Assembly (NCBI GenBank): GCA_963813155.1
Contig: CAWEYG010000003.1
Span: 928,001 to 992,000, forward strand
Source: an uncultured Acidobacteriota bacterium
GTDB lineage: Bacteria; Acidobacteriota; Thermoanaerobaculia; UBA5066; DATFVB01
Direction of reading: 5' to 3'
DNA length: 64,000 bases
The notes beneath the pieces were generated by a model that searched no databases, had not been told where the DNA came from, and saw only the letters and a program-made list of their open reading frames with translations. The position numbers were made by a program, and so were the translations under genes. This document shows positions 7,595 through 41,765 of this stretch, in pieces. Position 1 is the stretch's first letter. Each line of letters opens with the position of its first letter.

Positions 7595-8326
7595 TCAGTA
7601 TCCGAGCGCTCTGGGCACGAAGGTTCCCAGGAGATAGCCGCCGCCTCCGGTGAATGCTCCAACGGCGAGGACCTCGATCGCGCTTCGCACAAGGTTGATT
7701 TTTGCCAGCTGCCCTCGAACGCATCCAATGCCGGCCAGCACGAGAAAGGTCAATCCGACCGAGACGGGAAGGGCCGCGTGGACCGGAAGGAGAAAATACG
7801 GCAAGAGCGGGACGAGCGAGCCGATGAGATACGACGTGCCGATGGTGATCCCTTCGGCGATCTGAACGGTTTTCGGCTCGGAGTCGATCCCGAGCTCTTT
7901 TTCCATCATCGTCCTCGCAAAAGCGGTGGGACTCGCCTGAAGTTTTCCCGCGATCAGTTGGGCGTCTGCTTTTTGCACCCCTTCGTTCTCGAAAAGAAGC
8001 GCGAGCTCCTCCCGCTCGTATTCAGGATTTTCCCGGATGCTGCGGTGTTCTGCCTGGATTTCCGACTGCTGGACCTGCGCTTCGGCACGGTTCGAGAGAA
8101 ACTCGCCGGCTCCCATCGAGAGCGCCCCGGCGAACGCTTCCGCGAGGCCGGCGGCGATGACGGCCCGGATGCTCCCGGTGCCCCCCGCCATGGCACTGAC
8201 AACCCCGAGCGGGACCAATAACCCGTCCATTGAGCCGAAAACGAATTGCCGAATCCGGCCTCGACGTTCGACCCGAGCCCTTTCGCCGAGAATCTTTCTC
8301 TTCTCGGCGGCTGATATCTCCGCCAT
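7595..8326 (-). CDS. VIT1/CCC1 family iron/manganese transporter
   Basis: VFGSMDGL, AGALSMGAGEFLS, Glu-rich metal-binding region, GSLVPLLPY. Confidence 0.9.
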   Translation of the reverse strand: MAEISAAEKRKILGERARVERRGRIRQFVFGSMDGLLVPLGVVSAMAGGTGSIRAVIAAGLAEAFAGALSMGAGEFLSNRAEAQVQQSEIQAEHRSIRENPEYEREELALLFENEGVQKADAQLIAGKLQASPTAFARTMMEKELGIDSEPKTVQIAEGITIGTSYLIGSLVPLLPYFLLPVHAALPVSVGLTFLVLAGIGCVRGQLAKINLVRSAIEVLAVGAFTGGGGYLLGTFVPRALGY

Positions 8327-8379
8327 GTTCATCCCCCGTTCAAGACAGTCCATTTCACACCCGGCGCGGAAACGCGCCT

Positions 8380-8395
8380 CGATGTATTTGCATCA
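8380..8395 (+). promoter_or_regulatory. candidate regulator box CGATG-TATTTG-CATCA, followed by -10 TATGGT (8418-8423)
   Basis: Near-palindrome that recurs in island intergenic regions; 22 nt gap to the -10-like hexamer. Confidence 0.55.
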
Positions 8396-8442
8396 GGCAA
8401 GGGCAGGACGGCGTGGCTATGGTCGGAGGCGGAGGAAACGCC

Positions 8443-9702
8443 ATGATGTCAGCCGTCGAGCTCGAGATCGAGCTCTTTTGCCGCGGAATTCGCGTTCGTC
8501 TGGAGGATCTCCGGGGCGAGGACGCCCGCCGCATCGCGCGGACAAGAGCCGGCCTCGGCTCGGGTCTCGAGCTCGTGATCCCGAACCGGAAAAAGAAGAT
8601 ATGGGTCAACGTTCCCGTCGCCGAGCCGTTCGCCGGGAAATCGCCGTTCCTCCTGGTCACGACGGGGAAGGTCCCGTTCGTCCACGACGAGCGGAACGGA
8701 GCCGAGTATCCCGTCGAAATCCCTTCTGAGCCGGCCTGGTACTCGCGAAGCACTGCTTCCGGGGTCGAAATGAGCCGAATCGGCGTGCTACAGGGGAACT
8801 ATCTCGGCATTTACGTTTCCAACGCGTGCCTCTACTGGGCCTCGAGCCCTTCCCGCGCGTGCAAGTTCTGCACGACGGGAAGAAACCTCGGGGTCTCGGA
8901 ACAATCGCGAAAGAAGGTCGAAGACGTCGTCGAGGTGGCCCGAGCGGCTCGGAAAGAATCCGGCTCGATTTTCACCCACTTCAACACCGGCTACCACTAC
9001 GAAGAGGTCGACCGGCTCGAGCCCATCCACGGCCTCCGGCAGGCGGAACCGTTCGTTCGCGCCGTTCGTCGGGAGGTCGGTGGATTCATCGGAGTGCAGG
9101 CGCATCCGGTGCCCCGTCGCAAGTTCGGCGAGTATGACGCGTTGATCGAGGCCGGCACGGACCACTTCTCGTTCTGCTATGAATTCGAAGACCCGGAAAC
9201 GTTTGCGCGGCTGTGCCCCGGCAAGGCGCAGACCGTCGGCCAGAAGGGTTTCTTCGAAGCGATGGAGTACACGGCGGCCGCGCTCGGCCGCGGACGCGTG
9301 TCGGGGGAGATCATCGCGGGTCCCGAGTCGATCGACGCGACCAAGCGCGGCATCGACCGGATCGTCGACGCGGGAGCTTTCCCGACCGTCTGCATCTTCC
9401 GCCCGACGCTCGGGAGCGAAATGGAGAACGTTCCGCCGCCGGATCCCGAGGCGATGAAAGAAGTCTTCGCATACCTGTATTCCGCCTGCCGCCGCGCCGG
9501 ACTGCCGATCGGCATCCTCCCGATCGAAGTTTCCCTCGTCGTTCAGCCGGAGGAGGCCGTCGAGCTCGTCAAAGACGGATTTTCGACGCGAGTGTACGAG
9601 GCAAAGCTTTCGTTGATTCGGACCCTCGCGAAGCCCTACATCGCTTGGAAGACGAGGCTCCGCGCTGCGTCGAGCCCTCGAGCTAATTCCCCGGCCTCCT
9701 GA
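8443..9702 (+). CDS. radical SAM protein with expanded CX10CX2C motif (MSMEG_0568-like)
   Basis: CLYWASSPSRACKFC; RTRAGLGSG; CPGK; FRPTLGS; GGAGGA RBS before ATG 8443. Confidence 0.8.
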   Translation: MMSAVELEIELFCRGIRVRLEDLRGEDARRIARTRAGLGSGLELVIPNRKKKIWVNVPVAEPFAGKSPFLLVTTGKVPFVHDERNGAEYPVEIPSEPAWYSRSTASGVEMSRIGVLQGNYLGIYVSNACLYWASSPSRACKFCTTGRNLGVSEQSRKKVEDVVEVARAARKESGSIFTHFNTGYHYEEVDRLEPIHGLRQAEPFVRAVRREVGGFIGVQAHPVPRRKFGEYDALIEAGTDHFSFCYEFEDPETFARLCPGKAQTVGQKGFFEAMEYTAAALGRGRVSGEIIAGPESIDATKRGIDRIVDAGAFPTVCIFRPTLGSEMENVPPPDPEAMKEVFAYLYSACRRAGLPIGILPIEVSLVVQPEEAVELVKDGFSTRVYEAKLSLIRTLAKPYIAWKTRLRAASSPRANSPAS

Positions 9703-10132
9703 GCGTCCTCATGTAACGCACGACTTCCAGGATCTGGCGATCCGAAAGTGTGCGTCCGTACGGAGGCATAAGCGGAGAAAGGCCGATGCCGTTGCCACCG
9801 CGTCGGACCGCGTCCTCGAGCTGCTCGTCGAGGCGGCTCTTCTGGAACGCGGGGTCCGAGAGATCCTTTGGCTTCGGATCGAGGTTGAACGCATTGAAGC
9901 CGTCGCCCGCCCCGGTCTCGCCATGGCAGGTCTGGCAGTAGTAGGCAAAGACCATTTTCGCCAGCCGCAGCTCGTAGGAGGCCGAAGGGGCGGGGGATGG
10001 GGCCTCGGGGCTCTGCAGGTTGTTCGCGACGTTGGCAGCCACGTTTTTCGAGACCCGCGCGCCGACCGACCGCCGGCCGCATCCGGAGCCGGAAATCAGG
10101 ATGAGCGCGGCCGCGAGAAGTCGCGCCTTCAT
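9683..10132 (-). CDS. lipoprotein monoheme class I cytochrome c
   Basis: Signal peptide with lipobox GSGC, CQTCH, distal Met in LMPPY; overlaps the octaheme gene stop. Confidence 0.85.
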   Translation of the reverse strand: MKARLLAAALILISGSGCGRRSVGARVSKNVAANVANNLQSPEAPSPAPSASYELRLAKMVFAYYCQTCHGETGAGDGFNAFNLDPKPKDLSDPAFQKSRLDEQLEDAVRRGGNGIGLSPLMPPYGRTLSDRQILEVVRYMRTLRRPGN

Positions 10133-12132
10133 TTCGAAGCCTGCGCCGCGGCCGTCGGGGGAAGGCTCTCGAGGTACGACGTGATCCTCAGCGCGTCTGT
10201 GTCGGACAGGCCGTAGTTCGGGCAACGGACGTCGGCCCTCCAGCGTTGCGGCCCCTTCATCCAGTAGTAGACCCACCCCGGCCGGAGCCGCTTCGGGGTA
10301 TCCGTGAGAGGGGGTCCGACGTACCCGCCCGAAGCCCCGAGGATGTGGCAGCCCCGGCAACCGAGAGTGATGTAGAGACGCGATCCCTCGGAGGCGTCCG
10401 AGTCGCCCGCCGGCCGGCCGGCGAAGGGGTCCTCGGCGATCGCGGGATCGACGTAGAAATTCTGGATCGCGTCGGCGAGCAGCGCGGCCTGCTCGCGCGT
10501 GATCCGGAGCGACGGCATCCGTTCTTCGAGGATCGGGCGCAGCGTGTACGGCGCCGCGAGGTAGTCGACGAGCCACTCTCGTTTCACCTTGCTTCCCTCG
10601 AAGGTCAGAGGCGCCGTCGAGATGTCCTCGCCCCGGTCGCCAATCCGGTGGCAGGAGAGACAGCGGTAGCTTTCGACGAGCTTGCCGATCTGCCCGCCCG
10701 GGAGGAGGGCCGGCGCCGCCGTCGATTCCACGCGATAGCGTTCGGGAGGCGGCTCGGAGCCGAGCGAGAGAAGCGCCGTGACGACTGCGCGCGCATCCTC
10801 CGCATTCAAGCCGTAAGACGGCATCTTCAGACCCTGCGCGAAGGACCGGGGCGCGTCGATTTTCGCCGCGAGCCAGGCGGGAAGCGTCCTCGGAATGTCG
10901 GTTCGGCGCCCGAAGTCCAGGGACGAAGCCTTCTTGTCGCCAATCCCAGCGAGGTCCGGGCCGAACTTCTCGCCCCGGCCCGAAACCGACGGGTCATGGC
11001 ACGAGAGACATCCGGAAGTCCGAAAGACCTTCTCGCCCTTCTCGGCGAGAGTTTGATTGACCCGGATCGGCTCGAGGACGTTGGCCGGAGCTTCGAAATC
11101 GCGAAAGTCCTGCTCGAGGTAGGCCACGACATCGCGCGATTCGGCCTCGGAGAAGTTGAAGCGGGGCATCCGCGTCCTCGGATTGAACGCCTGGGGATTG
11201 CGGAGGAAGGCGAGCAGCCACCCGCGGGTCGCCGCGGTGGCGACGTGCGAGAGCTCCGGCGCCGCGCCCTTTCCTTTTCCTTCCACGGTATGGCAGGTGA
11301 TGCAGCGCGATTCGGAAAAGAGCTTCTTTCCGGCCGCGGGATCGCCCGGGGCCTCCTGTTCCGCGGCCCGAATCTGTCGCGCGAGCAGGTCGGGAGCGGC
11401 GAGACTGAACACATAGTGCGCCAGCTCCTCGACGCTGTCGCCCGCCAGATGGAAGTTCGGCATCGTGGCATTGGGATCGACGCCATGCGGGTCCCTGAGC
11501 CACTGGCGCAGCCAGATCCCTCCCGTTTTCATCGACTCCGCCGCGAGCGGCGGGGCTTCGGACACGAAATCTCCGTGACCGGGAACCGAGTGGCAGGCAT
11601 AGCAGCCCTTCCGGGCCATCAGCTCGCGGCCGCGGGAGAGGGTCGGCGCCTCCGGCACGGCCGCGGTGAAATGGCAACGGCCGCATCCTCCTTCGAGAAA
11701 GGAAAGGGGCAGCATCGGCGGCCCGGCGTCCCGCGCGGTCCCGTGGGCGTCCTCGAGATCGGTTGCGAGCCCCTGCCCTCCGTGGCACGACGTGCAGCCG
11801 AATCGGTCGAAATCTGCGGGCGTGTGGGCGGTTCGGGAATGAAAACCGTACGGTTCGGGAGCGCCGGCCAAGACCGCGTCGGCCGCCCCGAGGTGGCAGG
11901 TCGTGCACCTGTCCACGCGATCGTTGAAGTCGCGCAGCCAGAATTGCTGAATGGCCACCGGACGGCTCGAATACTCGCGCGCCGACTTGAGGTTTTTCGC
12001 CCGGGACGCCGCGAGCGCGAAATAACGGCGCTGAATCCCGCGATACGGCCGCAGGACGTTCTTGACCGGCGAGACCGCGAGGACCGCGAGGAAGATCACG
12101 CTGGTCGCGGCGAAGATTCGTCGGAGCGGCAC
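10129..12132 (-). CDS. membrane-anchored octaheme cytochrome c (Rieske/cytb-associated)
   Basis: N-terminal hydrophobic anchor; 8 CxxCH (CTTCH, CTSCH, CGRCH, CYACH, CITCH, CLSCH x2, CRGCH); repeated MP distal-ligand motifs. Confidence 0.9.
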   Translation of the reverse strand: MPLRRIFAATSVIFLAVLAVSPVKNVLRPYRGIQRRYFALAASRAKNLKSAREYSSRPVAIQQFWLRDFNDRVDRCTTCHLGAADAVLAGAPEPYGFHSRTAHTPADFDRFGCTSCHGGQGLATDLEDAHGTARDAGPPMLPLSFLEGGCGRCHFTAAVPEAPTLSRGRELMARKGCYACHSVPGHGDFVSEAPPLAAESMKTGGIWLRQWLRDPHGVDPNATMPNFHLAGDSVEELAHYVFSLAAPDLLARQIRAAEQEAPGDPAAGKKLFSESRCITCHTVEGKGKGAAPELSHVATAATRGWLLAFLRNPQAFNPRTRMPRFNFSEAESRDVVAYLEQDFRDFEAPANVLEPIRVNQTLAEKGEKVFRTSGCLSCHDPSVSGRGEKFGPDLAGIGDKKASSLDFGRRTDIPRTLPAWLAAKIDAPRSFAQGLKMPSYGLNAEDARAVVTALLSLGSEPPPERYRVESTAAPALLPGGQIGKLVESYRCLSCHRIGDRGEDISTAPLTFEGSKVKREWLVDYLAAPYTLRPILEERMPSLRITREQAALLADAIQNFYVDPAIAEDPFAGRPAGDSDASEGSRLYITLGCRGCHILGASGGYVGPPLTDTPKRLRPGWVYYWMKGPQRWRADVRCPNYGLSDTDALRITSYLESLPPTAAAQASK

Positions 12133-12141
12133 GTTTCCTCC

Positions 12142-12846
12142 CTAGAACCCGGTTCCCGCGTTCCAGGGCCAGACGAACGACCAGCCGGGGCCGCGAAAGA
12201 AAGTCCCGATGGCCGTGAGGATCGTGGCGATCATCACGAACCAGGTCATGATCCATTCGGGCAGCGTCACGCCCGAGAGAACGCGCCGGAGGCGGCCCCC
12301 CTGCTCCCCTCCGCGCGCGGCGAACATCGCGGCCGCGACGAGAACCGTGGGCACCACGACCGGCCAGCAACCTGAGGCTCCGAAGGCCACGACAAGTGCT
12401 CCGGTGGCGGCGACCAGCGCGATCGCCTGCTTCCTGCCTTTTCCAGCCCAGAGCGGGCCCGCCGTCAGGTTGATCCGGGCATAGGGAATGACGACGAGGG
12501 AGATCACGACGAGAGCCGGCAGCAGAACGCCGGCGACGATCGGCGGAAAATAGTGGAGAAGCTCCTGAAGTCCGAGAAAGTACCAGGGGGCCTTCGCGGG
12601 ATTCGGCGTCTCGAGCGGATTGGCGATTCCTTCCAGCGGCGCGTCGAACGCGAATGCCGCGACTGCTAGCGCGATTACCACGACCTGGAACAGGATGATC
12701 TCGCGAAGGATCAGGTGGGGAAAGGTCATCACGTATCGCTCGTCGTCCCGGCGGACGGCCGGCCGCATCTGCGGGTTCAGGAGCGCGACCCGGATCGGAA
12801 CGGCGAGCGGGTCGTTGGATTCGACGAGGTCGATCTCGCGGCTCAT
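12142..12846 (-). CDS. Rieske/cytb complex subunit IV (C-terminal half of split cytochrome b)
   Basis: [32 protein letters not shown] (PEWY-equivalent), FFRGPGW. Confidence 0.88.
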
Positions 12847-13628
12847 GGAAGATCCTCCTCTCGTAGCTCATCTTCCGGCGGGCCGCCGTCTTCTTCGGGG
12901 GGACCCTGCACCCCGCCGTCCTTGCGGACTCGCCAAACGTGAACCGAGACGAACAGGAGCAGCGCAACCGGAAGCACGACGCAGTGGAGGACGTAGAAGC
13001 GGAGCAGGGCGTTTTCCGACACGACGTTTCCGCCCAGCAGCAGGAAGCGAACCTTGTCGCCGATGAAAGGCGCCTGTTTCGCCATGTTCGTCCCGACCGA
13101 GACGCCCCAGAAGGCGAGCTGGTCCCACGGCAGGAGATAGCCCGTGTACGAGAGAAGAAGAGTCAGGATCAGGAGGACGACGCCGATGACCCAGTTGAAT
13201 TGGCGCGGCGGCCGATAGGCCCGGTGGTAGAAGACGCGGAGCATGTGGAGAATCGCCGCGAAGACCATCGCGTGCGCGGCCCATCGGTGGAGGTTTCTCA
13301 GGAAGAGCCCGTTGTCCACGACGTAGTGGAGCTCTTTCATGTCCTTGTAGGCCTGGGGAACGGAGGGATGATAGTAGAACATCAGCAGGACGCCCGTCGC
13401 GACGAGAATGGCCGAGCAGGCGAGCGCGATTCCCCCGAGCCAGTAGGTGTGCCGGAAGAGGAGGGTCTTTTCGCGGACCTTGACCGGATGAACGTGGAGA
13501 AACAGGTTCCCGAAGATGATGAGCGATCGGTTCAGGTTCGTGTCGGCTACGCCGTGCCGCACGATCGAGCGATAGACCGAAGTCTCGCGAATTCTGCGCC
13601 AGAGCATTTCCATCGTCGATTCCTTCAT
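12843..13628 (-). CDS. cytochrome b6-like N-terminal subunit of Rieske/cytb complex
   Basis: RNLHRWAAH...[18 protein letters not shown]-x14-H (b6-type spacing); ATG 13628 overlaps the Rieske stop. Confidence 0.92.
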
Positions 13629-14080
13629 GCTTTGAACAGCTTTCCGTGCGGAATCACGATGCTCGTGTCGACCAGGAGATTCCCCGCCGCGTCGGAAGTC
13701 ACCTCGAGCCAGGGAAGCGGACGGGGAGCGGGGCCGTGGGAGACGTTGCCCTCCAGATCGAAGCGGCTCCCGTGGCAGGGGCAGGCGATCGCTCCCTCGT
13801 CGGAAACGAATCGCGTAATGCAGCCGAGATGCGTGCAAACGGCGGAAAGGGCGTAGATCCCGCCCGGCCCCCCAATGACGTAGGCCTTCTGCTCCTTGTT
13901 GAAACGGACCGTGCCTTCCGGATAGTCGCCCGAGCCTCCCGCGCGAAACGTGGTCGGCGGTTCGAACAGGACCTTCGGCTTGAGGTAGTCGAGCGTCACC
14001 ACGCCGGAACCGAGCGCAGCCGCCGCGCAAGCGCCGACTCCGATGCGAGCGAGAAAGTCCCGCCGGCTCGACTCGTCCAT
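13625..14080 (-). CDS. Rieske [2Fe-2S] protein
   Basis: Tat motif SRRDFL, CTHLGC and [15 protein letters not shown]; alternative TTG start at 14116. Confidence 0.93.
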
Positions 14081-14108
14081 CTCGCGCAGATTCGGATCTC
14101 TCGCGCCG

Positions 14109-15938
14109 TCAGGCAACAGCGTCCCCCTTCCTCCCAAAACTCTGCATCGTGATCGTTCCGGCCGGACACCGGGCGGCGCACAGGCCGCAGCGAATGCAGA
14201 CGGTCTCGTCCTTCAGAAAAATCGCCCCCTCGCGCCGGCCCTCGATGACGATCGGCGCGATTTCGCGCGCGGCCGGCGACCCTCGCCGGATTAAGGCCTG
14301 CGGAAGGATCTCGATGCAGTTCTCCGGGCAGATGTCCTGGCATCCGCCGCAGAGGATGCATTCCGTTCCCTGGGAGGCGCTCTCTTCGAAGATCGTGTTC
14401 GTCCAGCAATGGAGGCAGCGGGAGCCCTCGAGCCGAGCCTGCTTCTCGGAAAAGCACTCCTCGACCTCCGCGATTCCGATCCGGCGGGCGATCGGCCGGG
14501 TCGGAGGCTTCTGGCGCGGGAGGCCCTCGAAATCCAGAGGTTTGGCATAGCGGCCATGGACGTCGATCTCGACCTCGATCTCGGGCTCGTTGCGCGGACG
14601 GCCGCGCAGGAATTCGTCGATCGACCGCGCCGCCTTCTTTCCGTCCGCGATCGCGTTGATCGCGATCCGGGGACCGAACGCCGCGTCGCCGCCGGTGTAC
14701 ACGCCCGGCGCCGTCGTCGCGAGCGTGTCGGGGTTCATCGTGATCCGGCCCCCTTTGATCGCAATACCGTCTTCCGGGCGGAGAAACGAGAAGTCACCCG
14801 TCTGGCCGATCGCCATGATCGCGGTATCGGCCTCCAAAACGGTTTCCGAACCCTCCAGAAATTGAGGTGAAAAACGGCCAGACTCGTCGAAAACCCGCGA
14901 GACCTTCCGGAATTCGATTCCCGTCAGGCCGGACGGTCCGCCGAGAAAACGGCTGGGCCCGAGCCGATGTCGGAAACGAATCCCCTCCGAGGAAGCCTCT
15001 TCGATCTCGTCGCCGGCGGCGGGCATCTCCGCCTCGGATTCGAGGCAGCAGACCGTCACCTCGCGGGCGCCGAACCGGACGGCGCTCCTGGCGACGTCGA
15101 GCGCCTGCACGATCGACAGATTGCGCTCCGTGTTGACCTGCTCCCCGGCCCGGGCCGCCGTGCGGGCGACGTCGAGGGCGACGTTGCCGCCGCCGATCAC
15201 GACGACGCGCCGGCCCATTTCGAGCTTGTAGCCGAGGTTGATGTTCAAGAGATAGTCGATCCCCCGGAGCACGCCGTCGAGTTCGACGCCCGGGATCGTC
15301 AGGTCCCGGCTCCGCATCGCCCCCACGCCGAGAAAGACGGACCGAAATCCCTGCGCCTGCAGGTCCGAGATCGTGAAGTCGGTCCCCAGTCTGGTGTTGG
15401 TCTTCAGCTCGACGCCCAGGGAAAGGATCGCGTTGATCTCGAGCTGGATGATCGCCCGCGGCAAGCGATACTCGGGCACGCCGAGGCGGAGCATGCCCCC
15501 GGCCACGGGAGCTCCTTCGAAGATCGTCACCGGATACCCCATGATCGCCAGGTCATGCGCGCACGCGAGGCCCGCCGGGCCCGATCCGATCACCGCGACT
15601 TTCTCCGCATAGCGGTCACGTCGGGCTCCGAAGATCTCCGTCAGTACCGAAAAGTCCATCATGCTTTCGACACCGAACTTTTCCGTGACGAAGCGCTTGA
15701 GGGCGCGGATCGAGATCGGAGCGTCGAGCTCCCCCCTTCGGCAGACGCTCTCGCAGGGCGCCGCGCAGATCCTTCCGCAGATCGAGGCGAGCGGGTTGGG
15801 CTTTCGAGCCACCGCGTAGGCTTCCCGGAACTTCCCCTGCGCGATCAGGGCCACATACTTCCCCGCTTCGGTGTGGACCGGGCAGGCCCACTTGCAGGGA
15901 AAGTTCCGTTCCAGCCATTCGACGTTGACGCCGGTCAC
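14109..15938 (-). CDS. GltD/NfnB-like FAD/NAD(P)-binding oxidoreductase with C-terminal 2x[4Fe-4S] ferredoxin domain
   Basis: PCKWACPVH, CGRICAAPCESVC, GSGPAG, GGMLRLGVPEYRLP, GGGNVA, RCLHC, CILCGGCQDICP, CIRCGLCAARCP; GTG at 15938. Confidence 0.9.
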   Translation of the reverse strand: MTGVNVEWLERNFPCKWACPVHTEAGKYVALIAQGKFREAYAVARKPNPLASICGRICAAPCESVCRRGELDAPISIRALKRFVTEKFGVESMMDFSVLTEIFGARRDRYAEKVAVIGSGPAGLACAHDLAIMGYPVTIFEGAPVAGGMLRLGVPEYRLPRAIIQLEINAILSLGVELKTNTRLGTDFTISDLQAQGFRSVFLGVGAMRSRDLTIPGVELDGVLRGIDYLLNINLGYKLEMGRRVVVIGGGNVALDVARTAARAGEQVNTERNLSIVQALDVARSAVRFGAREVTVCCLESEAEMPAAGDEIEEASSEGIRFRHRLGPSRFLGGPSGLTGIEFRKVSRVFDESGRFSPQFLEGSETVLEADTAIMAIGQTGDFSFLRPEDGIAIKGGRITMNPDTLATTAPGVYTGGDAAFGPRIAINAIADGKKAARSIDEFLRGRPRNEPEIEVEIDVHGRYAKPLDFEGLPRQKPPTRPIARRIGIAEVEECFSEKQARLEGSRCLHCWTNTIFEESASQGTECILCGGCQDICPENCIEILPQALIRRGSPAAREIAPIVIEGRREGAIFLKDETVCIRCGLCAARCPAGTITMQSFGRKGDAVA

Positions 15939-15949
15939 ACGATGTCCCG

Positions 15950-17299
15950 TCAGAACACGAATCTCGCCAGGACGTACAGGGTATTGTTGTCGCTCGCATT
16001 GCGCCCGGAACCGTCGTAATTCGTCTTCGCGCCGTTGAACTTCGTATAGACCGTGTACTGCGCGGCGAGCTGGCAGTTCTGAACCGGCCACCAGGATACG
16101 TTCGCGATGTAACCCGAGCTGTTCGGGCTGCCGGTCGCGCTTCCGCTGAGATCCGCCGGGGCGAAGAGAAGCGTGTCCGGAGTCCCGGTGACGTTGAACA
16201 AGCCGATTCCTGCCGAGTAGCGGTTCCCCAGATGGTAGTTGGCGCTGGCCGCCACCGAGCTCAGGTGGTGCTTCTCCCGATCGGCACCGCCCTGGTCGAA
16301 GCTCCCGGTCAGGGTCGAATTCTCGCGGATGTATGTCCCGCGCAGCGAGAGAACGTCCGTTCGGAACAGCGTTTGGTCGTATTGCGTGTCTGCTCCCCAA
16401 TCGGTGAACTCGTCCTCGGGGCCCGAGACGGAATTCGGGTTGGACTTCACGCGCATGCCGAAGCCTCCGACCTCCAGGAAATTGTTTCCCGCGATCGTCT
16501 GCTGCCACGCGACCCGCCAGTAGGGAGCGACACCGCGAATGTTGACGGCAAAGCCCTCGCCCGACGTCGGGGCAGGACTCCCCACGTGATCCGAGCGGTA
16601 GAGCGTTCCCGCGAGGTAGAGATGGTCATCCCACATCGCATAAGCACCGAGGCCCGCCACATCCTGGCCGAGACTCGCGATGATCGGAGCCGCTGTCGGG
16701 GTCGGTGCGGAGTCGCTCGCCATGAACGGATAGCCCCAGGCCGGTGTCGTGTTCCAGAGATCCTCGACGGTCGGATTGTTGTTGAGCGTCAAACCGTAAA
16801 CGAGCTCTTTGCCTCCCATCTTCGTCAAGTTGGCATAGCGCACGTCGCTATTGTCGATGCTGAAGTGATCGTCCTGCTTGGTGTAGGTCACCTGCACGAA
16901 GCTGCCAATGTGCGTCGTCCAGGCGCCGGAAAGAAAGAGCGAGATGTCCTGCGGGAATTCGACGTTCCCATTCTGCGTGCCGGGTTGAGTCTTGTTTGTG
17001 TGCGTGTAAGAGGTTTCCAACCACGCGGAAAGAGGAAGGGTCTTGAGCAGGTTGAGGCCGGCATGGGTTTCCTTCGGCTCGTTTACGACCGCTGGCGTCT
17101 CCTGGGCGCGGTCCGTGTAGCCCAGCAGCTTGAACCGCCGGCCAGCGCTGTTGAGCTCGGGAGGAGTGGTATGGCAGCCGTTACACGCAAGTCCCGTCTG
17201 TCGAGCGAAGCTCGGGACAGATTGCGCGGTCGAGCGAAACAAGACGGCGACGGCAAAGGACACGGCGACGACGAACAGGAACGAATAGCGGTTCTTCAT
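15950..17299 (-). CDS. cyc2: Cyc2-type monoheme cytochrome-porin fusion (outer membrane)
   Basis: Signal peptide, then SVPSFARQTGLACNGCHTTPPELNSAGRRFKLLGY, matching the Cyc2 signature (PxFARQT, CxxCH, PxL, GRxFK); beta-strand-rich remainder; C-terminal Phe. Confidence 0.88.
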   Translation of the reverse strand: MKNRYSFLFVVAVSFAVAVLFRSTAQSVPSFARQTGLACNGCHTTPPELNSAGRRFKLLGYTDRAQETPAVVNEPKETHAGLNLLKTLPLSAWLETSYTHTNKTQPGTQNGNVEFPQDISLFLSGAWTTHIGSFVQVTYTKQDDHFSIDNSDVRYANLTKMGGKELVYGLTLNNNPTVEDLWNTTPAWGYPFMASDSAPTPTAAPIIASLGQDVAGLGAYAMWDDHLYLAGTLYRSDHVGSPAPTSGEGFAVNIRGVAPYWRVAWQQTIAGNNFLEVGGFGMRVKSNPNSVSGPEDEFTDWGADTQYDQTLFRTDVLSLRGTYIRENSTLTGSFDQGGADREKHHLSSVAASANYHLGNRYSAGIGLFNVTGTPDTLLFAPADLSGSATGSPNSSGYIANVSWWPVQNCQLAAQYTVYTKFNGAKTNYDGSGRNASDNNTLYVLARFVF

Positions 17300-17301
17300 C
17301 T

Positions 17302-17877
17302 CTACCTCGCGATTTCAAAGTCCGCCGTCGTGGCGCCTTTCACCGTGACGGCCTTCTGGGTTCCTTTCGCTTTCGGATGCCAGACCTTGACCGTGTAAGC
17401 ACCATCGGGAACGTCGGCAATCCGGAACGAACCGTCCGCCTTTGTGACCGCAAAATACGGAGTCGGAACCGCTGCGACAAAGCCTTCCATCTCGGGATGG
17501 ACCTTGCAGAGGAGTGTGGCGACGCACTCTTTCTTGAACGTGTAGCTCTTGGTCTGCCCCTTGGGCCACGTGCCGAGATTGAACTTGTCGGCGCAGGCAT
17601 CCGGGGAGTACACGTTGTGCAGGACGGCGTCGGAATTGAGAAAATCCACGGTCGTTCCGACGAGCACTGGGACGACGTGCGGACTGAAGATCAGGTTCGC
17701 CTGGTCCATCTTCGCGTGAGCGGTCGGCGCGGGAAACGTCTTCCCCGACTCGACGGCGTAAACCACCGCGTCGGCGCTGTCGCGGGTCCCCTTCACCTTC
17801 ACTTTTCCCTGGATCTCACCCGCGAGAAGGGGTGCGCCAACGCTCAGAATCACTACTGCGATCAAATTATTCTTCAT
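17302..17877 (-). CDS. secreted cupredoxin-like protein with carboxypeptidase-regulatory-like domain
   Basis: Signal peptide; HNVYS...CKVHPEM gives type-1 Cu ligands His/Cys/His/Met; GAYTVKVWHP; AAGGAG RBS. Confidence 0.82.
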   Translation of the reverse strand: MKNNLIAVVILSVGAPLLAGEIQGKVKVKGTRDSADAVVYAVESGKTFPAPTAHAKMDQANLIFSPHVVPVLVGTTVDFLNSDAVLHNVYSPDACADKFNLGTWPKGQTKSYTFKKECVATLLCKVHPEMEGFVAAVPTPYFAVTKADGSFRIADVPDGAYTVKVWHPKAKGTQKAVTVKGATTADFEIAR

Positions 17878-17959
17878 TGAGACCAACTCCTTTCAACACC
17901 ACAGATTCTGTCGCCCCGGGAGGTCCGATCCCATCCCGCAAGCTCACCGAATTACGTAG

Positions 17960-18652
17960 TTAAACCTCACCAGGCAAGAGGATGCGTTTCTGGAACGCGA
18001 AGGCGACTGCCTCGGCCTTCGAGTGGAGCTCGAGCTTGTCGAGGATGTTCTGGATGTGGTTGCGTGCCGTCAGGTGCGAGATATGGAGCCGATCCGCGAT
18101 CTCGGGCGTTGCCCGGCCGGCCGCGAGCATGCCGAGCACTTCGACTTCACGGGCCGTGAGCTTCCGGGCACGAGCGTCGGGCGACTCCCGGACGACGGAG
18201 AGCATCGATCGCGGCGGTATGGCAGGTTCTTCCGAGTCCTTCGGCTCCCTCCGGTCGGAGAGCTGAGGTTGAAGGATATGAGCGAGATAGAAGCGATCGG
18301 GAGGCCCGGATCCGACATTGAGGATGCTCACGTCCGCGACGATGCTCGCGCCTCCCTTCGCTTGGAGAGTCAGGCCGAAATGTCGGACAGGCTCGCCGCG
18401 GAAGGCCATCTGCGTGACCGGACAGGTCTCGGCGCAGTAGCGGTTCCCGTGGACGTCGCTGCCCTCCAACATCCCGGCGCAGCTGGCCCCCAGGGCTTCC
18501 TCCTCGCTGTAACCGAAGAGGTGCTCTGCGCTGTGGTTCCAGAAAACGATCCGGTTGCGCCGGTCGGTGGCGAAAACGGGCTCGGGCGAATGCTCGAGCG
18601 CCGAGAAAAGAGCGGCGACGTCGCCCGGGAGCTGAGCGGTGCCGAACCTCAT
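17960..18652 (-). CDS. PAS domain + LuxR/NarL HTH transcriptional regulator
   Basis: IVFWNHSAEHLFGY (PAS), C-x14-C-x3-C, LTAREVEVL...IADRLHIS..TARNH. Confidence 0.9.
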   Translation of the reverse strand: MRFGTAQLPGDVAALFSALEHSPEPVFATDRRNRIVFWNHSAEHLFGYSEEEALGASCAGMLEGSDVHGNRYCAETCPVTQMAFRGEPVRHFGLTLQAKGGASIVADVSILNVGSGPPDRFYLAHILQPQLSDRREPKDSEEPAIPPRSMLSVVRESPDARARKLTAREVEVLGMLAAGRATPEIADRLHISHLTARNHIQNILDKLELHSKAEAVAFAFQKRILLPGEV

Positions 18653-19038
18653 CCGATTTTCGCGTTCTTGTTCAGGATCTCCCGGCAAAATCCTTCGAGC
18701 TCCTGATTCGTGAACTCGTTCCAGCCGTCGCAGGTGTCGTGCTCGCGCAGCTGTGCGTCGCAGGAGAGCGGAACGCGGTCCACGATCTGGCGCGCGAGCT
18801 GCCACTTGTTGGCGAGGTCCTCGATCTCCTCCCGGCTCGCCTTCGGGTTCCGGCGAGTGAGCCAGTCATGACGGTCGCGGAACTCCTCGTCCGAAAGGCG
18901 GCGAAATCCCCGGCAGAAGACGCCTTTCTCGGTCGCGACCTGACACATCGAGTGTTCGTCGTCCGTCATCGCGAGCAGGGTCTCGCGCAAGCGGCGAATC
19001 GCTTCGGCGCGCGATATCGAAGTTGTGATTGGCCCCAT
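18649..19038 (-). CDS. Cys/His-containing hypothetical protein coupled to the PAS-LuxR gene
   Basis: 129 aa ORF with GAGG RBS and ATGA overlap; HSMC, FCRGF, SCD, HDTCDGW. Confidence 0.7.
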   Translation of the reverse strand: MGPITTSISRAEAIRRLRETLLAMTDDEHSMCQVATEKGVFCRGFRRLSDEEFRDRHDWLTRRNPKASREEIEDLANKWQLARQIVDRVPLSCDAQLREHDTCDGWNEFTNQELEGFCREILNKNAKIG

Positions 19039-25795: not shown

Positions 25796-25840
25796 GTCGA
25801 TGATCCGGTCGATGACCGGTCACCTGTTATGCTGAGCGCC

Positions 25841-26503
25841 ATGTCGTCCGCTGTCCACGAAGCGATCGATCTGCTCTCCAAGAGCGGCGAAGCCGCTTTT
25901 GCGATCGACTCCGGCGACCGGATCGTCTACTGGAACCGCGGCTGCGAGGAGCTTCTCGGCTTCGAACCGCAGAAGGTCCTGGGAAAGCACTGCTACGACG
26001 TCATGGGCGGTCGCGACGAGAACGGAAACGTCTATTGCTACCGAAACTGCCCCGTCGCCGACCAGGCGCGGAACGACCACTTGCCGGAAGTGCATCCCTT
26101 CCACCTGCTCGTCAAGGACAAGGCCGGGAAGGAAAAGCGGCTCGCCGTTTCGATGTTTTCCGTTCCGGCCGTCCGGCCGACCCTCTCCGCCGTCATTCAC
26201 GTCATCCGCGAGGAGGGATCCGCGCCTTCGCCGCTCGAGAAGAGCCTCGCGAAAGCCTCGGAGGGTATGCCCGCGCCCCGCTGGCCGTTGACGACCTCGG
26301 AAGGCCAGAAGGTCGAGCTGACCGCGCGCGAGAAGGAGATCCTTCGCTGCCTCGCGGAAGGCCTGTCGACTCCCGCGATCTCGGACCGGCTCTTCATCGC
26401 GCCAGTGACCGTTCGAAACCACGTCCAGAACCTCCTGCACAAGCTCGACGTCCACACGAAGCTCGCCGCGGTCGTCTTCGCCTACCGCAACCAGCTGATC
26501 TGA
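25841..26503 (+). CDS. PAS domain + LuxR/NarL HTH regulator (paralog of 17960..18652)
   Basis: IVYWNRGCEELLGF, C-x14-C-x3-C, LTAREKEIL...TVRNH; TG-n-TATGCT 7 nt before ATG 25841. Confidence 0.9.
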   Translation: MSSAVHEAIDLLSKSGEAAFAIDSGDRIVYWNRGCEELLGFEPQKVLGKHCYDVMGGRDENGNVYCYRNCPVADQARNDHLPEVHPFHLLVKDKAGKEKRLAVSMFSVPAVRPTLSAVIHVIREEGSAPSPLEKSLAKASEGMPAPRWPLTTSEGQKVELTAREKEILRCLAEGLSTPAISDRLFIAPVTVRNHVQNLLHKLDVHTKLAAVVFAYRNQLI

Positions 26504-29517: not shown

Positions 29518-31456
29518 CTACTGGTGCCAGCGCAGGAAAATGCCGTAGCGGTTCGCGTCGTACGAACCGAGGCCGTTCTCCGCGGCCAGGGACTCCCGGT
29601 ACTTGTCCCGTCGCCACTCGGCGATGAACGACGCATTCTTCGTCACGTCGACCGAGGCGCGGATGCTCGCGCGGTCGATCTTGAACGGGAACGAACCGTC
29701 GTTCTCGGAACTGTCCGTACGCGCCGTCGATCGAGACGGGAGATAGCAGGAGCGAGAGGCCGCCCTCGAGGGAACGGCCGTCTTCCTTGTGAATCGAGCG
29801 GTCCGGGGCGAGGGTCTGAGGAACGACGAACAGGATCTTGCTGTCTGCCTGATATTTCTCGGCGGAAAGGTGCAGGCGAATGAACTTTGGCCGGCCACCC
29901 CTCGACGGTCCCCCCGTACTGGCGGATCCGGCCGTCGTAGCCGATCCCCGTCCTGTCGTTCGAGGCGTCGATCTGCTCGGCGGTCGCGCTCAGCTGGAAG
30001 ACCTGCTTCAGGCTCCACGCCGCGCGAAGGCGATACCGATCGCGGTCGAGGAAGTCCGTTCGAAGGACGGGTTCGTCGGCGCGCTCGCGGCGGTAATCGG
30101 CTCCGAGCGTCACGCCGCTCTGCGAAAAGGTCGCCCCGGCGTCGAGTGTCTTGATCTTTCGATGAAACGTCCCGCCCTGTCCGCCGGGAAGGACGATTTC
30201 CGACGGGTCTTCGTCGACGGTGACGTCCTGATTCGTCTGCGACCATCCGGCCCGCACCGCGAAGGGTCCGAATCGGCGAGCCTCGATCCTCGCGTCGAAC
30301 ACCTCGTCGGTCCGTTCGATCGCGGTGTCGGCCTGCAGGACCGAGAGAAGATTCTTCGGGTCCACGCCGCCGAACGTCACCGAGTCGAGATACAGGCTGG
30401 AGACGAGCGCGAAGCCGTCGAGCTCGGTGTGGTTCTTCGAGTAGCCGGCGATGAAGTCGATCCCTTCGGCGAGGTTCGCCTCGACCCGGCCGCTTCCCCG
30501 CCACATCGTGTTGCGGGCGCGGGCGGACGTCGTGTCGGAGAGGCCGCCGAAGAACCGGCTGATCTCGAACGACACGAGGTTTCCGGAGAGATCTTCCGCG
30601 GACGACGTGTCGGCCTCCGCCGCGGCATGGATGTACGAGCCGACGAGCTTGATTCGATCGCCGAGCCTTCCGGTTACGTACGCGCTCGTCACCGGCGTGT
30701 TCGCGTCGTCTTTCGTCGTTCGGTTGAAATCGTTCAGGGAAACGGGCACCCCGAGGACCGTTCCCGGGTCGTTGCCGTTCCCGGCCCCCGCCACGAGACC
30801 CTGGGTCTCGACTTCGTGGAGCTTCCTCCAGCCCTGGATGACCTGCCCCGAGATCGGCCCGGCGTCGAACGCCGCGCCGACCCGGAATTCCTCGTCCCGG
30901 TCGTCGAGCCGGTCGGTGAGACGGAACTCGTCCTCCCCGACATGGTAAGTGTTTCGGCCCGGCCCCTCGTCGCGGTTCCGCGTGTATCCGAGGATCGGCG
31001 TGATCACGGCGCCGGGGAACAGCCTCAACTCGACGTCGAGAACGTTGCGAGTCCGGCTGTACGTCTGTTCGCCCGGCACGATCCCGTCGCCGAGAAGCGG
31101 ATTCGCGAAACCGGGAAGAGCGCTGTAGAGCTCCGTTCGCCGATAGCTCAGTTGAAGGTCGTACTTGCCCGAGAGGCCCGAGCGGACGTTCAGCGACCCG
31201 GCCGGACCCGCGCCGAGGTCGCTCGCGTCGACGCGGAACGTGTCGAAGAATGAGGTCGGTCCGGGTGCGGTCACCAGGAAGGACCGCAGAAGGAATCCTT
31301 CTCGCTCGTTGATCTGGCTGCGGTACATCTGCTCGTTGCCGGAGACGTCGACGAAGCGGTATCCCATCTCGAGGTCGAGAGGAAGGGCCTGCGCGGAGAC
31401 AAAGCGTCCCGCGCGACCGCGACAGCGGCGGCGAAGAGGCGGCGGGCGTTCTTCAT
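29518..31456 (-). CDS. mtrB: MtrB/PioB-like outer-membrane beta-barrel (frameshifts near 31420, 29880, 29700)
   Basis: Follows the decaheme gene; GYRFVDVSGNEQMYRSQIN start; alternating beta-strand pattern; ends YGIFLRWHQ. Confidence 0.7.
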
Positions 31457-31466
31457 CTGTTCTCTC

Positions 31467-32402
31467 TCACTTCAGGAGCGTCGGCGACCGGTTCGAGCCG
31501 TGGATCGCCGTGTGGCAGGTCGTGCAGTTCTGGTATCGCGGCAGCAGGAGGTTGTGAAACGACGGCGGCTGCGATCCCAGCGTCGTCGCCGTCAGATTCG
31601 AGTGGCACTCGAGGCAGAGCTGGTCGACCCGGGCGCGGATCAGCTGCCGCGGGTTCGACGAGCCGTGCGGCTGATGACAGCTCATGCAGTCTCCGGCCAC
31701 GCCCGAGACGTGCTCGAAGACGAACGGTCCGCGTTTCTCCGCATGGCAGGACACGCACGGCAACTCGTCCGCCCGGGTGCGGCGGAGCGCCGACTCGCCG
31801 CGCTTTCCGTGCGGGTCGTGGCAGGAAGCGCAGTTCATTCCTCCCTCGAGGCGATGCGCGAACGGCTTGTCGCGGAACGACGCGGCCTGGCCCGGATGGC
31901 AGGAGGCGCAGAGAACGACCGATTCCTTCTTGAGAAGAGAGGCCGCCTTCGGTTCCGACGCGTGCAGGGAATGGCAGCTCAGGCAATTGACCGCCGCGGA
32001 GTTGGCGTGAACGCTGTTTCGGCGGGAGCGATGGTCCGTCGTCTGGTCGTGGCAGGTCAGGCAGAACGCCGCGCCGTCGGGACCGCGCATCGGGCGGGCA
32101 ACGGGCTTCTCGCCGGACGAGGCGACATGCTCCGCCGTCTCGCCGTGGCACGTCGCGCAGACGGCGTCTCCCGTGATCCCTTTCTTCGCGAGACTCAGAA
32201 GATGCCCGTGCGGATTCCGCGCAAAGACTTTCGCTTCGTCGTGGCAGTCGGCGCACGCGACCGTCTCCACTTTCGCCGGGGCCGGAGCTTCGACAGGGGG
32301 AGTCGGCTTGTCCGCCGCCTGCTCGGCTGCAAGCAGAGAAAGAGAGGCGGCGCCGAGTCCGAAGACCAGGAACGCCGCCAGGACTCCCCGATTGCTCTTC
32401 AT
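31467..32402 (-). CDS. mtrA: MtrA/DmsE family periplasmic decaheme cytochrome c
   Basis: Signal peptide; 10 CxxCH; CHAEKRGPFVFEH, CHQPHGS, CTTCHTAIHGSN signature. Confidence 0.88.
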   Translation of the reverse strand: MKSNRGVLAAFLVFGLGAASLSLLAAEQAADKPTPPVEAPAPAKVETVACADCHDEAKVFARNPHGHLLSLAKKGITGDAVCATCHGETAEHVASSGEKPVARPMRGPDGAAFCLTCHDQTTDHRSRRNSVHANSAAVNCLSCHSLHASEPKAASLLKKESVVLCASCHPGQAASFRDKPFAHRLEGGMNCASCHDPHGKRGESALRRTRADELPCVSCHAEKRGPFVFEHVSGVAGDCMSCHQPHGSSNPRQLIRARVDQLCLECHSNLTATTLGSQPPSFHNLLLPRYQNCTTCHTAIHGSNRSPTLLK

Positions 32403-32433
32403 TTCGCCCTCTTCGATCCGACGCGCCTCCGGA

Positions 32434-34546: not shown

Positions 34547-34598
34547 GACCAACCTCCAAACCTGCCGCAAGTCTGCGCCGGACCCGCCCGGACAAGCA

Positions 34599-34614
34599 TG
34601 ATGCAATCGAATTA
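34599..34614 (-). promoter_or_regulatory. candidate regulator box TAATT-CGATTG-CATCA upstream of mtrC
   Basis: Conserved TTGCATCA half; CAGACT -10-like hexamer 23 nt downstream. Confidence 0.5.
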
Positions 34615-41174: not shown

Positions 41175-41765
41175 ATGAGATTCATTCTCGGAGTCATCGT
41201 CGGCATCGGCGGTTTTCTCGCGGTCGGATACTTCGCCGCGACGAGCGGGCGCATCAGCGTCGCCGCGACGAACCACGGGGGAATCAACGACGCGATCGAT
41301 CACTGGCTCGGCGAGGTTTCCGATCGGTCGATCGAGAAGCACGCCCCGCAGAAGACCAATCCCTTCGCGAACGATCCCGCCGCGCTTGCCGTGGGCCTGT
41401 CTCACTACAAGGAAAACTGCCTCGATTGTCACGGGGCCCGGTCCCTCGACGGCGCGGAGTTCTCGAAGGGCCTCAACCCCGCTCCTCCGATGCTCGACAT
41501 GAAGGGGACCCAGAAGATGAGCGATGGCCAGCTGTTCTGGATCGTCTCGAACGGCATCCGGATGACGGGCATGCCGGCATTTTCCCCCACGCATTCCGAG
41601 GCCGAGATCTGGAAGATCGTGGCCTTCGTCCACCACCTCCCGCAATTGACCGACGCCGAGGTCGCGAAGCTCAAGCAGGGACGGGAAGAGCCGGAAGAAC
41701 ACCACAAGGAGGCGGGCGGCGCTGCCGGCGAAAACATCCATCCCGAGGGCGCGGCGCACTCCTAG
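41175..41765 (+). CDS. membrane-anchored monoheme cytochrome c
   Basis: N-terminal TM, CLDCH, GIRMTGMPAF. Confidence 0.88.
   Translation: MRFILGVIVGIGGFLAVGYFAATSGRISVAATNHGGINDAIDHWLGEVSDRSIEKHAPQKTNPFANDPAALAVGLSHYKENCLDCHGARSLDGAEFSKGLNPAPPMLDMKGTQKMSDGQLFWIVSNGIRMTGMPAFSPTHSEAEIWKIVAFVHHLPQLTDAEVAKLKQGREEPEEHHKEAGGAAGENIHPEGAAHS

Follow-up and report, generated by a model that had tools for sequence, protein, structure and literature searches.

We analysed a 64,000-nucleotide (nt) stretch of DNA, hereafter the window (positions 928,001 to 992,000 of contig CAWEYG010000003.1, assembly GCA_963813155.1), from an uncultured Acidobacteriota bacterium, with attention to a gene for an iron-sulfur (Fe-S) flavoprotein and to the Rieske/cytochrome b operon in which it lies. 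The window has a G+C content of 65% and belongs to a 3.8-Mb genome, 90.8% complete, whose nearest relatives are Acidobacteriota of the Thermoanaerobaculia/Holophagae type. The flavoprotein gene runs from 15938 to 14109 on the minus strand, begins with a GTG start codon, and encodes 609 amino acids (aa); an original prediction made from the DNA letters had given these coordinates correctly. The best reading of the sequence comparisons is that this protein would be the cytoplasmic (n-side) NAD(H)-binding subunit (NAD, nicotinamide adenine dinucleotide; NADP, its phosphorylated form) of an anammox-type complex of Rieske protein, cytochrome b6, subunit IV, and octahaem cytochrome c.

The flavoprotein and its operon

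Matches to Pfam families (Pyr_redox_2, Fer4_20, and Fer4_7) and to PDB sequences and folds identified the product of 14109..15938 (minus strand) as an NfnA/StnC-type Fe-S flavoprotein with Rossmann domains for flavin adenine dinucleotide (FAD) and NAD(H) and four predicted [4Fe-4S] clusters. By sequence, its closest solved relatives were found to be 9bov_A (E 1e-97), 9n5u_A (E 2e-92), and 8oh5_C (E 4e-81), and in the same HMMER comparison with PDB relatives the classical enzymes NfnL, NfnB, GltD, and dihydropyrimidine dehydrogenase ranked behind these Bfu-type NfnL-like domains (E 1e-46 to 1e-75). An AlphaFold2 model (mean pLDDT 88.8, pTM 0.88) searched with Foldseek likewise placed 9n5u_A, 9bov_A, and 8oh5_C on top, with the Bfu type ahead of the classical enzymes. 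Five parts of the protein, all on the minus strand, are of concern here: (i) a two-cluster domain at residues 13-88 (15675..15902; Fer4_20 match) with C15, C19, C54, C58, C62, C66, and Lys81; (ii) a duplicated Rossmann helix at residues 254-290 (15069..15179), inserted in the NAD-binding beta-alpha-beta unit; (iii) the residues CCLES at 297-301 (15036..15050), where NADPH-dependent relatives carry YRR; (iv) a permuted segment at residues 473-513 (14400..14522), recognised by profile search and ending in RC508LHC511; and (v) a C-terminal 2x[4Fe-4S] ferredoxin-like domain at residues 525-597 (14148..14366), with an insert of ~40 residues, supported by Fer4_7 and Fer4 matches and by Cys conservation and presumed to be the docking and wire end of the flavoprotein. 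The N-terminus, MTGVNVEWLERNFPC, was read as having no hydrophobic stretch, in agreement with the earlier statement that a signal peptide is absent, and the further claim of a cytoplasmic Fe-S flavoprotein with about four clusters was borne out by 16 conserved Cys and an invariant Lys81.

The genes of the operon are co-directional and closely packed, with 4-nt overlaps or 9-nt gaps between neighbours. Downstream of the flavoprotein gene is that of a Rieske [2Fe-2S] protein (13625..14137, minus strand; NCBIfam Rieske and twin-arginine matches) with a twin-arginine signal and a box II of CPCHGSRF, the Ser/Phe type; two starts are possible for it: TTG at 14137, with which it would overlap the flavoprotein gene by 29 nt, and ATG at 14080. 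Next is a cytochrome b6-like four-helix cytochrome b of 261 aa (12843..13628, minus strand; Pfam Cytochrome_B), the start of which overlaps the Rieske stop by 4 nt. This cytochrome b has four His haem ligands, and its best solved relative is the cytochrome b6 6rqf_I (E 4.7e-42). Compared with b6, its N-terminus is longer by ~27 residues, with N41, L44, H45, and K50 invariant, and the Cys that binds haem cn in b6 aligns with Trp63 (Y-C-LGG in b6 vs Y-W-LGG in the window protein). A subunit IV-like membrane protein of 234 aa (12142..12846, minus strand; Pfam Cytochrom_B_C, NCBIfam ExtQ-like) is encoded with a 4-nt overlap of the cytochrome b stop, followed by a membrane-anchored octahaem cytochrome c of 667 aa with eight CXXCH motifs (10129..12132, minus strand; Pfam cytochrome c families) and a monohaem cytochrome c lipoprotein of 149 aa with a lipobox and one CXXCH (9683..10132, minus strand; Pfam and NCBIfam cytochrome c, with a weak cytochrome-579 match).

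Upstream of the flavoprotein gene is that of a 449-aa protein (15950..17299, minus strand), which we take from its architecture to be a putative Cyc2-like fused cytochrome-porin. Its signal peptide is followed by one CXXCH motif, at residue 39, and by an extended beta-rich body, possibly an outer-membrane barrel, that ends in Phe (...ARFVF); no Pfam or NCBIfam family matched it, and its neighbours in the protein atlas are unnamed 'cytochrome c family' clusters of ~454 aa near porin families. Further upstream are genes for a secreted cupredoxin with a C-x2-H-x2-M copper site and a CarboxypepD_reg-like domain (17302..17886, minus strand; Pfam Copper-bind and CarboxypepD_reg, weak NCBIfam amicyanin/halocyanin) and a PAS-LuxR regulator (17960..18805, minus strand; Pfam GerE and PAS), the latter kept in closer related loci, with tblastn matches of 50-67% identity in most of them. 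Neither the NfnS/NfnA small partner of NfnSL nor the BfuB/C genes were found in the operon. No RNA runs containing the operon were listed, only soil and rhizosphere DNA metagenomes, and a complex prediction with two cytochrome b copies and flavoprotein residues 440-609, run on custom alignments, scored 0.00, from which no conclusion was drawn.

Iron-sulfur ligands, nucleotide site, and duplicated helix

The original prediction had described the flavoprotein as lacking the N-terminal CxxC of the first GltD cluster while carrying an RCLHC motif near its C-terminus, and both features were confirmed. The protein begins 14 residues before its first Cys (FPC15KWAC19P) with no CxxC upstream; the reading frame that precedes the start overlaps the Cyc2-like gene and contains no CxxC; and in 19 relatives inspected none was detected, within the upstream sequence covered, ahead of candidate start codons up to 105 residues before the first Cys. 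The RC508LHC511 motif follows the FAD/NAD domain, ahead of the 2x[4Fe-4S] domain, whose Cys are C527/530/533/537 and C581/584/587/591. A profile of residues ~473-513 was built from the window protein and 17 relatives and searched against all PDB sequences. Ten matches were returned, of which six corresponded to the N-terminal region (residues 7-47) in NfnB, NfnL, Xfn, or GltD (4ylf_B, E 4.8e-6; 5jca_L, E 1e-4; 5vj7_A, E 1e-4; 6s6s_G; 7mfm_I; 2vdc_G), three to the post-FAD segment of 9bov_A, 8oh5_C, and 9n5u_A, and the remaining one to a stray cytochrome c (E 0.19). As the same profile matches canonical N-termini and the post-FAD segments of the NfnA/StnC enzymes, the CxxC segment has moved behind the flavin domain; judged from these alignments, the relocation is a circular permutation common to the window protein and NfnA/StnC.

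Conservation was examined in 67 loci found by peptide patterns from the window flavoprotein, a sample biased to closer relatives (45-86% identity), 63 of which hold full-length proteins. Among these 63, Cys 15, 19, 54, 58, 62, 66, 508, 511, 527, 530, 533, and 537 were invariant, and Cys 581, 584, 587, and 591 were kept in 62. Lys81 was invariant in 84 diverse sequences and in all 67 loci sequences with a residue there. According to the structural report on the Caldicellulosiruptor enzyme, its FAD-proximal cluster is held by Cys108, Cys147, and Cys151 together with Lys170 (PMC11829005). These residues of 9bov_A align with C19, C58, C62, and K81, so that an FAD-proximal [4Fe-4S] cluster on Cys19/Cys58/Cys62/Lys81 (Cys3Lys) is predicted. 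The second cluster would be bound by C15 and C66 together with the relocated C508 and C511, possibly also with C54; in total, the 16 Cys and Lys81 would fit four [4Fe-4S] clusters, one of them Cys3Lys.

At the nucleotide site, the earlier observation that the usual YRR motif is replaced was likewise upheld: after G249GGNVA the canonical position reads C298-L299-E300-S301. An acidic residue just after the second Rossmann strand usually marks a preference for NAD over NADP, as in lipoamide dehydrogenase compared with glutathione reductase. After two gapped or partial loci were dropped, 64 of the 65 related loci with residues at this position had x-L-E-x, the exception being L059 with YRRS. To place this in the wider superfamily, 150 representatives of 50%-identity clusters nearest the query were tallied, of which 101 could be parsed and 49 did not match the pattern. 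The L-E type accounted for 71 of the parsed sequences (33 with the canonical 30-residue spacing and 38 with a longer insert), the YRR type for 29 (24 canonical, five with a longer insert), and one sequence, with a longer insert, was of neither type (none with canonical spacing). The CLES of the window protein is thus a common state of the superfamily. With an acidic residue in place of two Arg, it is plausible that the nucleotide site is of the NADH type.

The repeated helix was also found as had been noted, with ALDVARTA (254-261) recurring as ALDVARSA (279-286) 25 residues later across a 13-residue linker. A pair of 8-mers as alike as these arose in one of 300 shuffles of the flavoprotein, and HMMER placed the single helix of each solved relative on both copies. 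In the AlphaFold2 model the first helix continues from the glycine loop, and residues 276-290 have a pLDDT below 50. The second copy is present, more or less diverged, in 65 of the 67 relatives aligned, the other two being gapped there. The insert varies in length among Rieske-linked relatives, and a sister clade linked to cbb3 oxidase genes (see below) carries AYDVARSA twice as an exact repeat. Identity between the two copies in the DNA is confined to a 12-nt core, which argues for an old rather than a recent duplication; by comparison of these sequences, the duplication appears to predate the family's split into different operon contexts. The original prediction had treated these oddities as peculiar rearrangements of one gene, and this view did not survive: NfnA/StnC-type modules normally have both the permutation and the Lys ligand, L-E is found in 71 of the 101 parsed representatives, and the duplicated helix is kept across the clade. 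A recent or gene-specific rearrangement of the flavoprotein was ruled out by this conservation in relatives.

Relatives, gene contexts, and host genome

Five of the 67 loci end too soon after the flavoprotein gene, and counts of neighbours were made on the informative loci. A Rieske open reading frame (ORF) was directly downstream of the flavoprotein gene in 62/62, with cytochrome b (60/60), subunit IV (57/57), and a multihaem cytochrome c (51/51) beside it in every case; the upstream genes were slightly less constant, with the cupredoxin in 53/62 and the Cyc2-like gene in 45/54. A wider sample of 301 Acidobacteriota genomes was searched with the flavoprotein at E <= 1e-150, and 35 of the 42 hits besides the window's own gene were examined, the seven closest (74-78% identity) being left out. 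Among these more distant hits, 23 had Rieske and cytochrome b genes directly downstream, and one (L081:2950-6947) had the flavoprotein gene followed by a 136-aa Rieske gene and then, in the place of cytochrome b, by a gene for an outer-membrane barrel of the Alginate_exp type. The original prediction had staked its proposed link on homologs not being usually found without Rieske/cytochrome b genes, and they are usually found with them, in the Rieske count of 62/62 as well as in 23 (plus one with Rieske only) of the 35 distant hits.

The other 11 distant hits (44-47% identical) lie in a different setting, which was constant in 11/11: ccoP-like, ccoN, ccoO, a 102-aa ORF, the flavoprotein paralog, ccoG, and ccoI (L090, L091, and L093-L101; e.g., L096:2048-10840). 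This cbb3-linked sister clade shares the permuted build, the Lys, and the L-E site. CcoG is a cupric reductase that needs a cytoplasmic donor, and the paralog may be the cytoplasmic electron donor of CcoG. In a quick maximum-likelihood tree of 58 rows, the cbb3-linked group formed one clade (support 100), and the Rieske-linked and cbb3-linked sequences together were split from fused NfnA-like and FlpD-fused representatives (support 100); the place of the cbb3 clade inside the Rieske-linked diversity was weakly supported, with long branches. One Rieske-linked clade has nosZ directly after the operon in 5/5 loci tested (L059, L060, L064, L083, and L084); in L064 (L064:8001-16930) nosD also follows, and L059 of this clade is the one with the NADPH-type YRRS. 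Orthologs of 77-78% identity in the same operon are present in Geothrix strains (G. terrae, G. campi, and G. oryzisoli; loci L018, L022, and L030).

Fusions of the flavoprotein were also detected. P0030 (773 aa) is a fusion ORF of the flavoprotein (81% identical) and the Rieske protein; it is known from a single cluster and may be a frameshift, and as a protein it is topologically possible, with a cytoplasmic domain, a membrane anchor, and a periplasmic Rieske domain. The close relatives of the L059 protein P0272-P0283 (~750 aa) carry an N-terminal response-regulator receiver domain, and in P0166 the same flavoprotein module is fused to an MvhD/FlpD domain. The receiver-domain and MvhD/FlpD fusions indicate that the module has been plugged into several different systems.

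Three haem-copper oxidases are encoded in the host genome together with two or three copies of NDH-1, and RuBisCO was not found in it at 90.8% completeness. It also holds a second Rieske/cytochrome b cluster (G000:C5:239059-246061; L107:1060-8062), in which a separate 150-aa polyferredoxin and a HEAT-repeat protein replace the flavoprotein; after them come the Rieske and cytochrome b genes, an ORF resembling subunit IV, and a multihaem cytochrome c of 889 aa. Contig C1 carries a third cytochrome b, which is 515 aa long and fused to a cytochrome c domain. Within the window, a 490-aa ORF (8230-9702, plus strand) lies divergent just past the end of the operon, with coding-like codon bias and no Pfam match. 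Further extracellular electron-transfer equipment in the window consists of an MtrC/MtrF-like outer-membrane multihaem cytochrome (32399-34606, minus strand) and an adjoining 574-aa ORF (29643-31367, minus strand), which has no family match and is possibly the porin of this cytochrome. Other features are a molybdopterin oxidoreductase (38966-41149, plus strand) followed by a monohaem cytochrome c (41175-41765, plus strand), and a second PAS-LuxR regulator (25829-26503, plus strand) with the same domain build as that of 17960-18805.

Known systems, proposed electron path, and meaning

The flavoprotein was compared with four kinds of known system. Its best sequence and fold matches are NfnA/StnC (9bov/9bp5, 9n5u, and 8oh5), with which it shares the predicted Lys-ligated proximal cluster, the post-FAD CxxC segment, and an NfnL-like domain that would serve as a non-bifurcating converter of hydride to single electrons feeding a cluster chain; three reports describe the NfnA/StnC-type FAD as a non-bifurcating flavin (PMC11829005, PMC12018979, PMC10482914). 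Unlike NfnA/StnC, the window protein is without the N-terminal [2Fe-2S] domain, the C-terminal NuoG/Fdh-like domain, and the BfuB/C partners, and has instead its own 2x[4Fe-4S] domain, L-E rather than YRR, and the 25-residue duplicated-helix insert. As the NfnL-like module is present while the Bfu-specific domains and partners are absent, the protein shares a module with NfnA/StnC and is not a member of that group. It is also clearly homologous to GltD, NfnB (NfnL), and the N-terminal module of dihydropyrimidine dehydrogenase, sharing with them a pair of Rossmann domains and the two-cluster Fer4_20 domain, and differs from canonical GltD/NfnB in the permuted CxxC segment, the Lys in place of the Glu/Gln ligand, the missing YRR, and the lack of a GltB or NfnA(S) partner.

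Among described systems, the nearest is the Rieske/cytochrome b complex of anammox bacteria with its NAD(P) oxidoreductase (the R/b-2 and R/b-3 type), matched by described features only. Kuenenia stuttgartiensis has two such complexes (Kuste4569-4574 and Kustd1480-1485), with NAD(P) oxidoreductases Kuste4570 and Kustd1483, and the anammox complexes combine a cytochrome b that is split and of the b6 type with subunit IV and with cytochromes c of six or eight haems (PMC12954380). In the same source, the oxidoreductase subunits are described with four clusters leading to FAD, the proximal one without a fourth Cys and next to a buried Lys, and the structure closest to them is the Caldicellulosiruptor NfnABC 9bp5, which has the same sequence as 9bov_A (PMC12954380). 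The window flavoprotein similarly lies in an operon with Rieske, split cytochrome b6, subunit IV, and multihaem cytochrome c, and would similarly be cytoplasmic, with four predicted clusters leading to FAD and a proximal cluster of three Cys and a Lys. The same source further reports Rieske potentials of +303 and +335 mV, the latter in the Ser/Phe protein Kustd1480, and an extra b haem predicted on His43/His62 of two Kuenenia cytochrome b copies (PMC12954380). The window Rieske protein is of the same Ser/Phe type as Kustd1480, a class assigned 200-230 mV by correlation, above the usual menaquinol class (PMC3509893), and the invariant His45 of the window cytochrome b could hold an extra haem like that of Kuenenia. 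Unlike the Kuenenia gene order, the flavoprotein precedes the Rieske gene in the window operon, which on the periplasmic side supplies a Cyc2-like porin-cytochrome together with a cupredoxin and a monohaem cytochrome c, compared with an HAO-like octahaem protein in Kuenenia. A further feature of the window protein is its L-E nucleotide site. A homology search with the distant member L059 gave no anammox names among the 120 matches listed, and no description of an acidobacterial or cbb3-linked form was found in the literature searched, on which the subscription papers Kartal 2013, ten Brink 2013, and de Almeida 2016 may bear.

A further parallel is cytochrome b6f, which binds ferredoxin:NADP reductase (FNR) and is entered by electrons at its n-side in cyclic electron flow. 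By analogy, the window operon may encode a b6-type complex linked at the n-side to NAD(P) through a flavoprotein/Fe-S route; the b6f partner is loosely bound, uses soluble ferredoxin, and works with haem cn, whereas in the window the Fe-S flavoprotein is encoded in the operon and cytochrome b has no haem cn Cys.

Taken together, the comparisons are best read as placing the flavoprotein on the cytoplasmic side of a complex that oxidises quinol, where it would act as an Fe-S wire for NAD(H) without bifurcating electrons. Its dicluster domain would dock on the n-side of the cytochrome b dimer and exchange single electrons with the b haems, on a path that may pass an extra haem on the invariant His45, as modelled for Kuenenia, and the FAD, itself not bifurcating, would interconvert one-electron and hydride chemistry. 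Concerning direction, NAD+ reduction by bifurcation at the Qo site is what we tentatively favour over an input of NADH, with a little less than even confidence. Menaquinol would be oxidised at Qo; one electron would run downhill through the high-potential Rieske protein, the two cytochromes c (octahaem and monohaem), and the cupredoxin until it met a strong oxidant, which could be a terminal oxidase or an extracellular acceptor reached via the Cyc2-like porin, and the other, low-potential electron would pass through the b haems, the four clusters, and FAD to reduce NAD+. The complex would in this manner make NADH from quinol without spending proton-motive force. Since N2O reduction runs one way, the nosZ-linked relatives are expected to carry electrons from quinol through Rieske and cytochrome c to N2O reductase, and the presence of nosZ directly downstream thus makes a quinol-oxidising membrane complex the expectation in that clade; the same direction was taken for the window operon. 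Qo-site bifurcation is favoured because (i) the family is always paired with strongly oxidising sinks (nosZ, cupredoxin, or a cbb3 oxidase cluster); (ii) the Ser/Phe Rieske class stands above the usual menaquinol type; (iii) NADPH-type YRR members exist (L059 and the five insert-bearing representatives), which suits the production of reductant; and (iv) a four-cluster wire exceeds the needs of an NDH-2-like input.

Several points weigh against this reading. A flavoprotein match was found in only 39 of the 301 Acidobacteriota genomes (32 of 186 genera), which is a patchy distribution. Unlike the anammox host, the window host is a heterotroph-like soil acidobacterium, and it is not evident why an organism that looks like a heterotroph would have to reduce NAD+ with quinol. 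An L-E site would be expected of an enzyme that works with catabolic NADH, and the position of the sister clade beside CcoG suggests that a close relative oxidises NAD(P)H. Two Kuenenia cytochromes b keep the haem cn Cys (PMC3509893), and the window cytochrome b, unlike them, has Trp at this position. Lastly, the cluster ligation is derived from alignments and published papers rather than from model coordinates, and the binding of the flavoprotein and its direction are likewise what we infer from sequence.

The same subunit and wire could run in reverse, with NADH oxidised at FAD and electrons entering the b haems and the Qi site, which would make the complex a hard-wired oxidoreductase of the NADH:cytochrome c kind (or one of NADH:quinone plus quinol:cytochrome c), analogous to cyclic flow in which ferredoxin and FNR feed b6f from the n-side. 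This direction would be thermodynamically easy with any acceptor and would agree with the NADH-type L-E site, by the general rule on acidic residues, as well as with a likely heterotrophic host that makes NADH in catabolism; the sister clade beside CcoG/CcoI in cbb3 clusters is a setting where an NAD(P)H-oxidising donor makes sense, and the second Rieske/cytochrome b cluster of the host, with its cytoplasmic polyferredoxin, indicates that n-side Fe-S partners are common in the lineage. We nonetheless consider it rather unlikely: a single-FAD NDH-2 does the same job, for which a four-cluster wire and a possible extra haem are over-built; the host already possesses NDH-1, with two or three copies; NADPH-type members exist, and NADPH is unusual as a respiratory donor; and neither the raised Rieske class nor the constant very high-potential sinks would be required.

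An improbable alternative is that the flavoprotein is a maturation or maintenance reductase, for example one that reduces copper for the neighbouring cupredoxin, NosZ, or cbb3 oxidase. Copper proteins do occur in all three gene contexts, and the sister-clade gene is flanked by ccoG and the copper ATPase gene ccoI, but no CcoG homolog is adjacent in the Rieske-linked clades, where the invariant neighbours are Rieske and cytochrome b (cupredoxin 53/62 vs Rieske 62/62). The association is confounded by the frequent presence of copper in high-potential enzymes, and the anammox complexes are described without a copper enzyme (PMC12954380). Flavin-based bifurcation among quinone, NAD(P), and soluble ferredoxin, the stronger version of the original prediction, draws on homology with NfnB/NfnL, whose FAD bifurcates, and on the ferredoxin-like domain, but is most improbable and found no support: the protein is of the Lys-ligated NfnA/StnC type and not the Glu-ligated NfnL type, the FAD of its nearest solved relatives is described as non-bifurcating, the NfnS/NfnA small partner and BfuB/C genes are absent from the operon, and the linear chain terminates in the dicluster domain, which is fused to the protein and looks like a wire. 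An 'uphill' path from Fe(II) to NAD+ in this complex alone was rejected as well, as quinol chemistry at Qo is needed for Rieske-side electrons to reach the potential of NAD+, and as quinol oxidation is the direction expected of the nosZ-linked relatives.

Overall, the flavoprotein belongs to a known but mechanistically puzzling kind, and its permuted, Lys-ligated module is itself already known; the circular permutation and Lys ligand shared with the solved NfnA/StnC enzymes give a structural template for it. That a Rieske/cytochrome b complex may reduce NAD(P)+ by bifurcation at the Qo site has been proposed for anammox bacteria. To our knowledge, anammox bacteria are not available in pure culture. 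A 2025 paper still argues for NAD(P)+ reduction from redox potentials and AlphaFold models (PMC12954380). The same four-part complex is commonly encoded in soil Acidobacteriota and other phyla, and also in named Geothrix strains, where it is testable by ordinary biochemistry and genetics. We regard it as possible, with confidence well short of even, that Rieske/cytochrome b complexes with this flavoprotein represent a widespread third mode of complex III chemistry, in which the low-potential Qo electron is exported instead of being recycled to Qi. If true, this mode would apply where very oxidising sinks are present (N2O reductase, oxygen reductase, a cupredoxin/Cyc2 chain, or anammox HAO-type enzymes), and NAD(P)H would be formed by way of the haem/Fe-S wire at no cost in proton-motive force. 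Further adaptations of this plug-in module would then be seen in the duplicated Rossmann helix and in the cbb3/CcoG-linked clade, and cultured Geothrix would be the first tractable system for proof.

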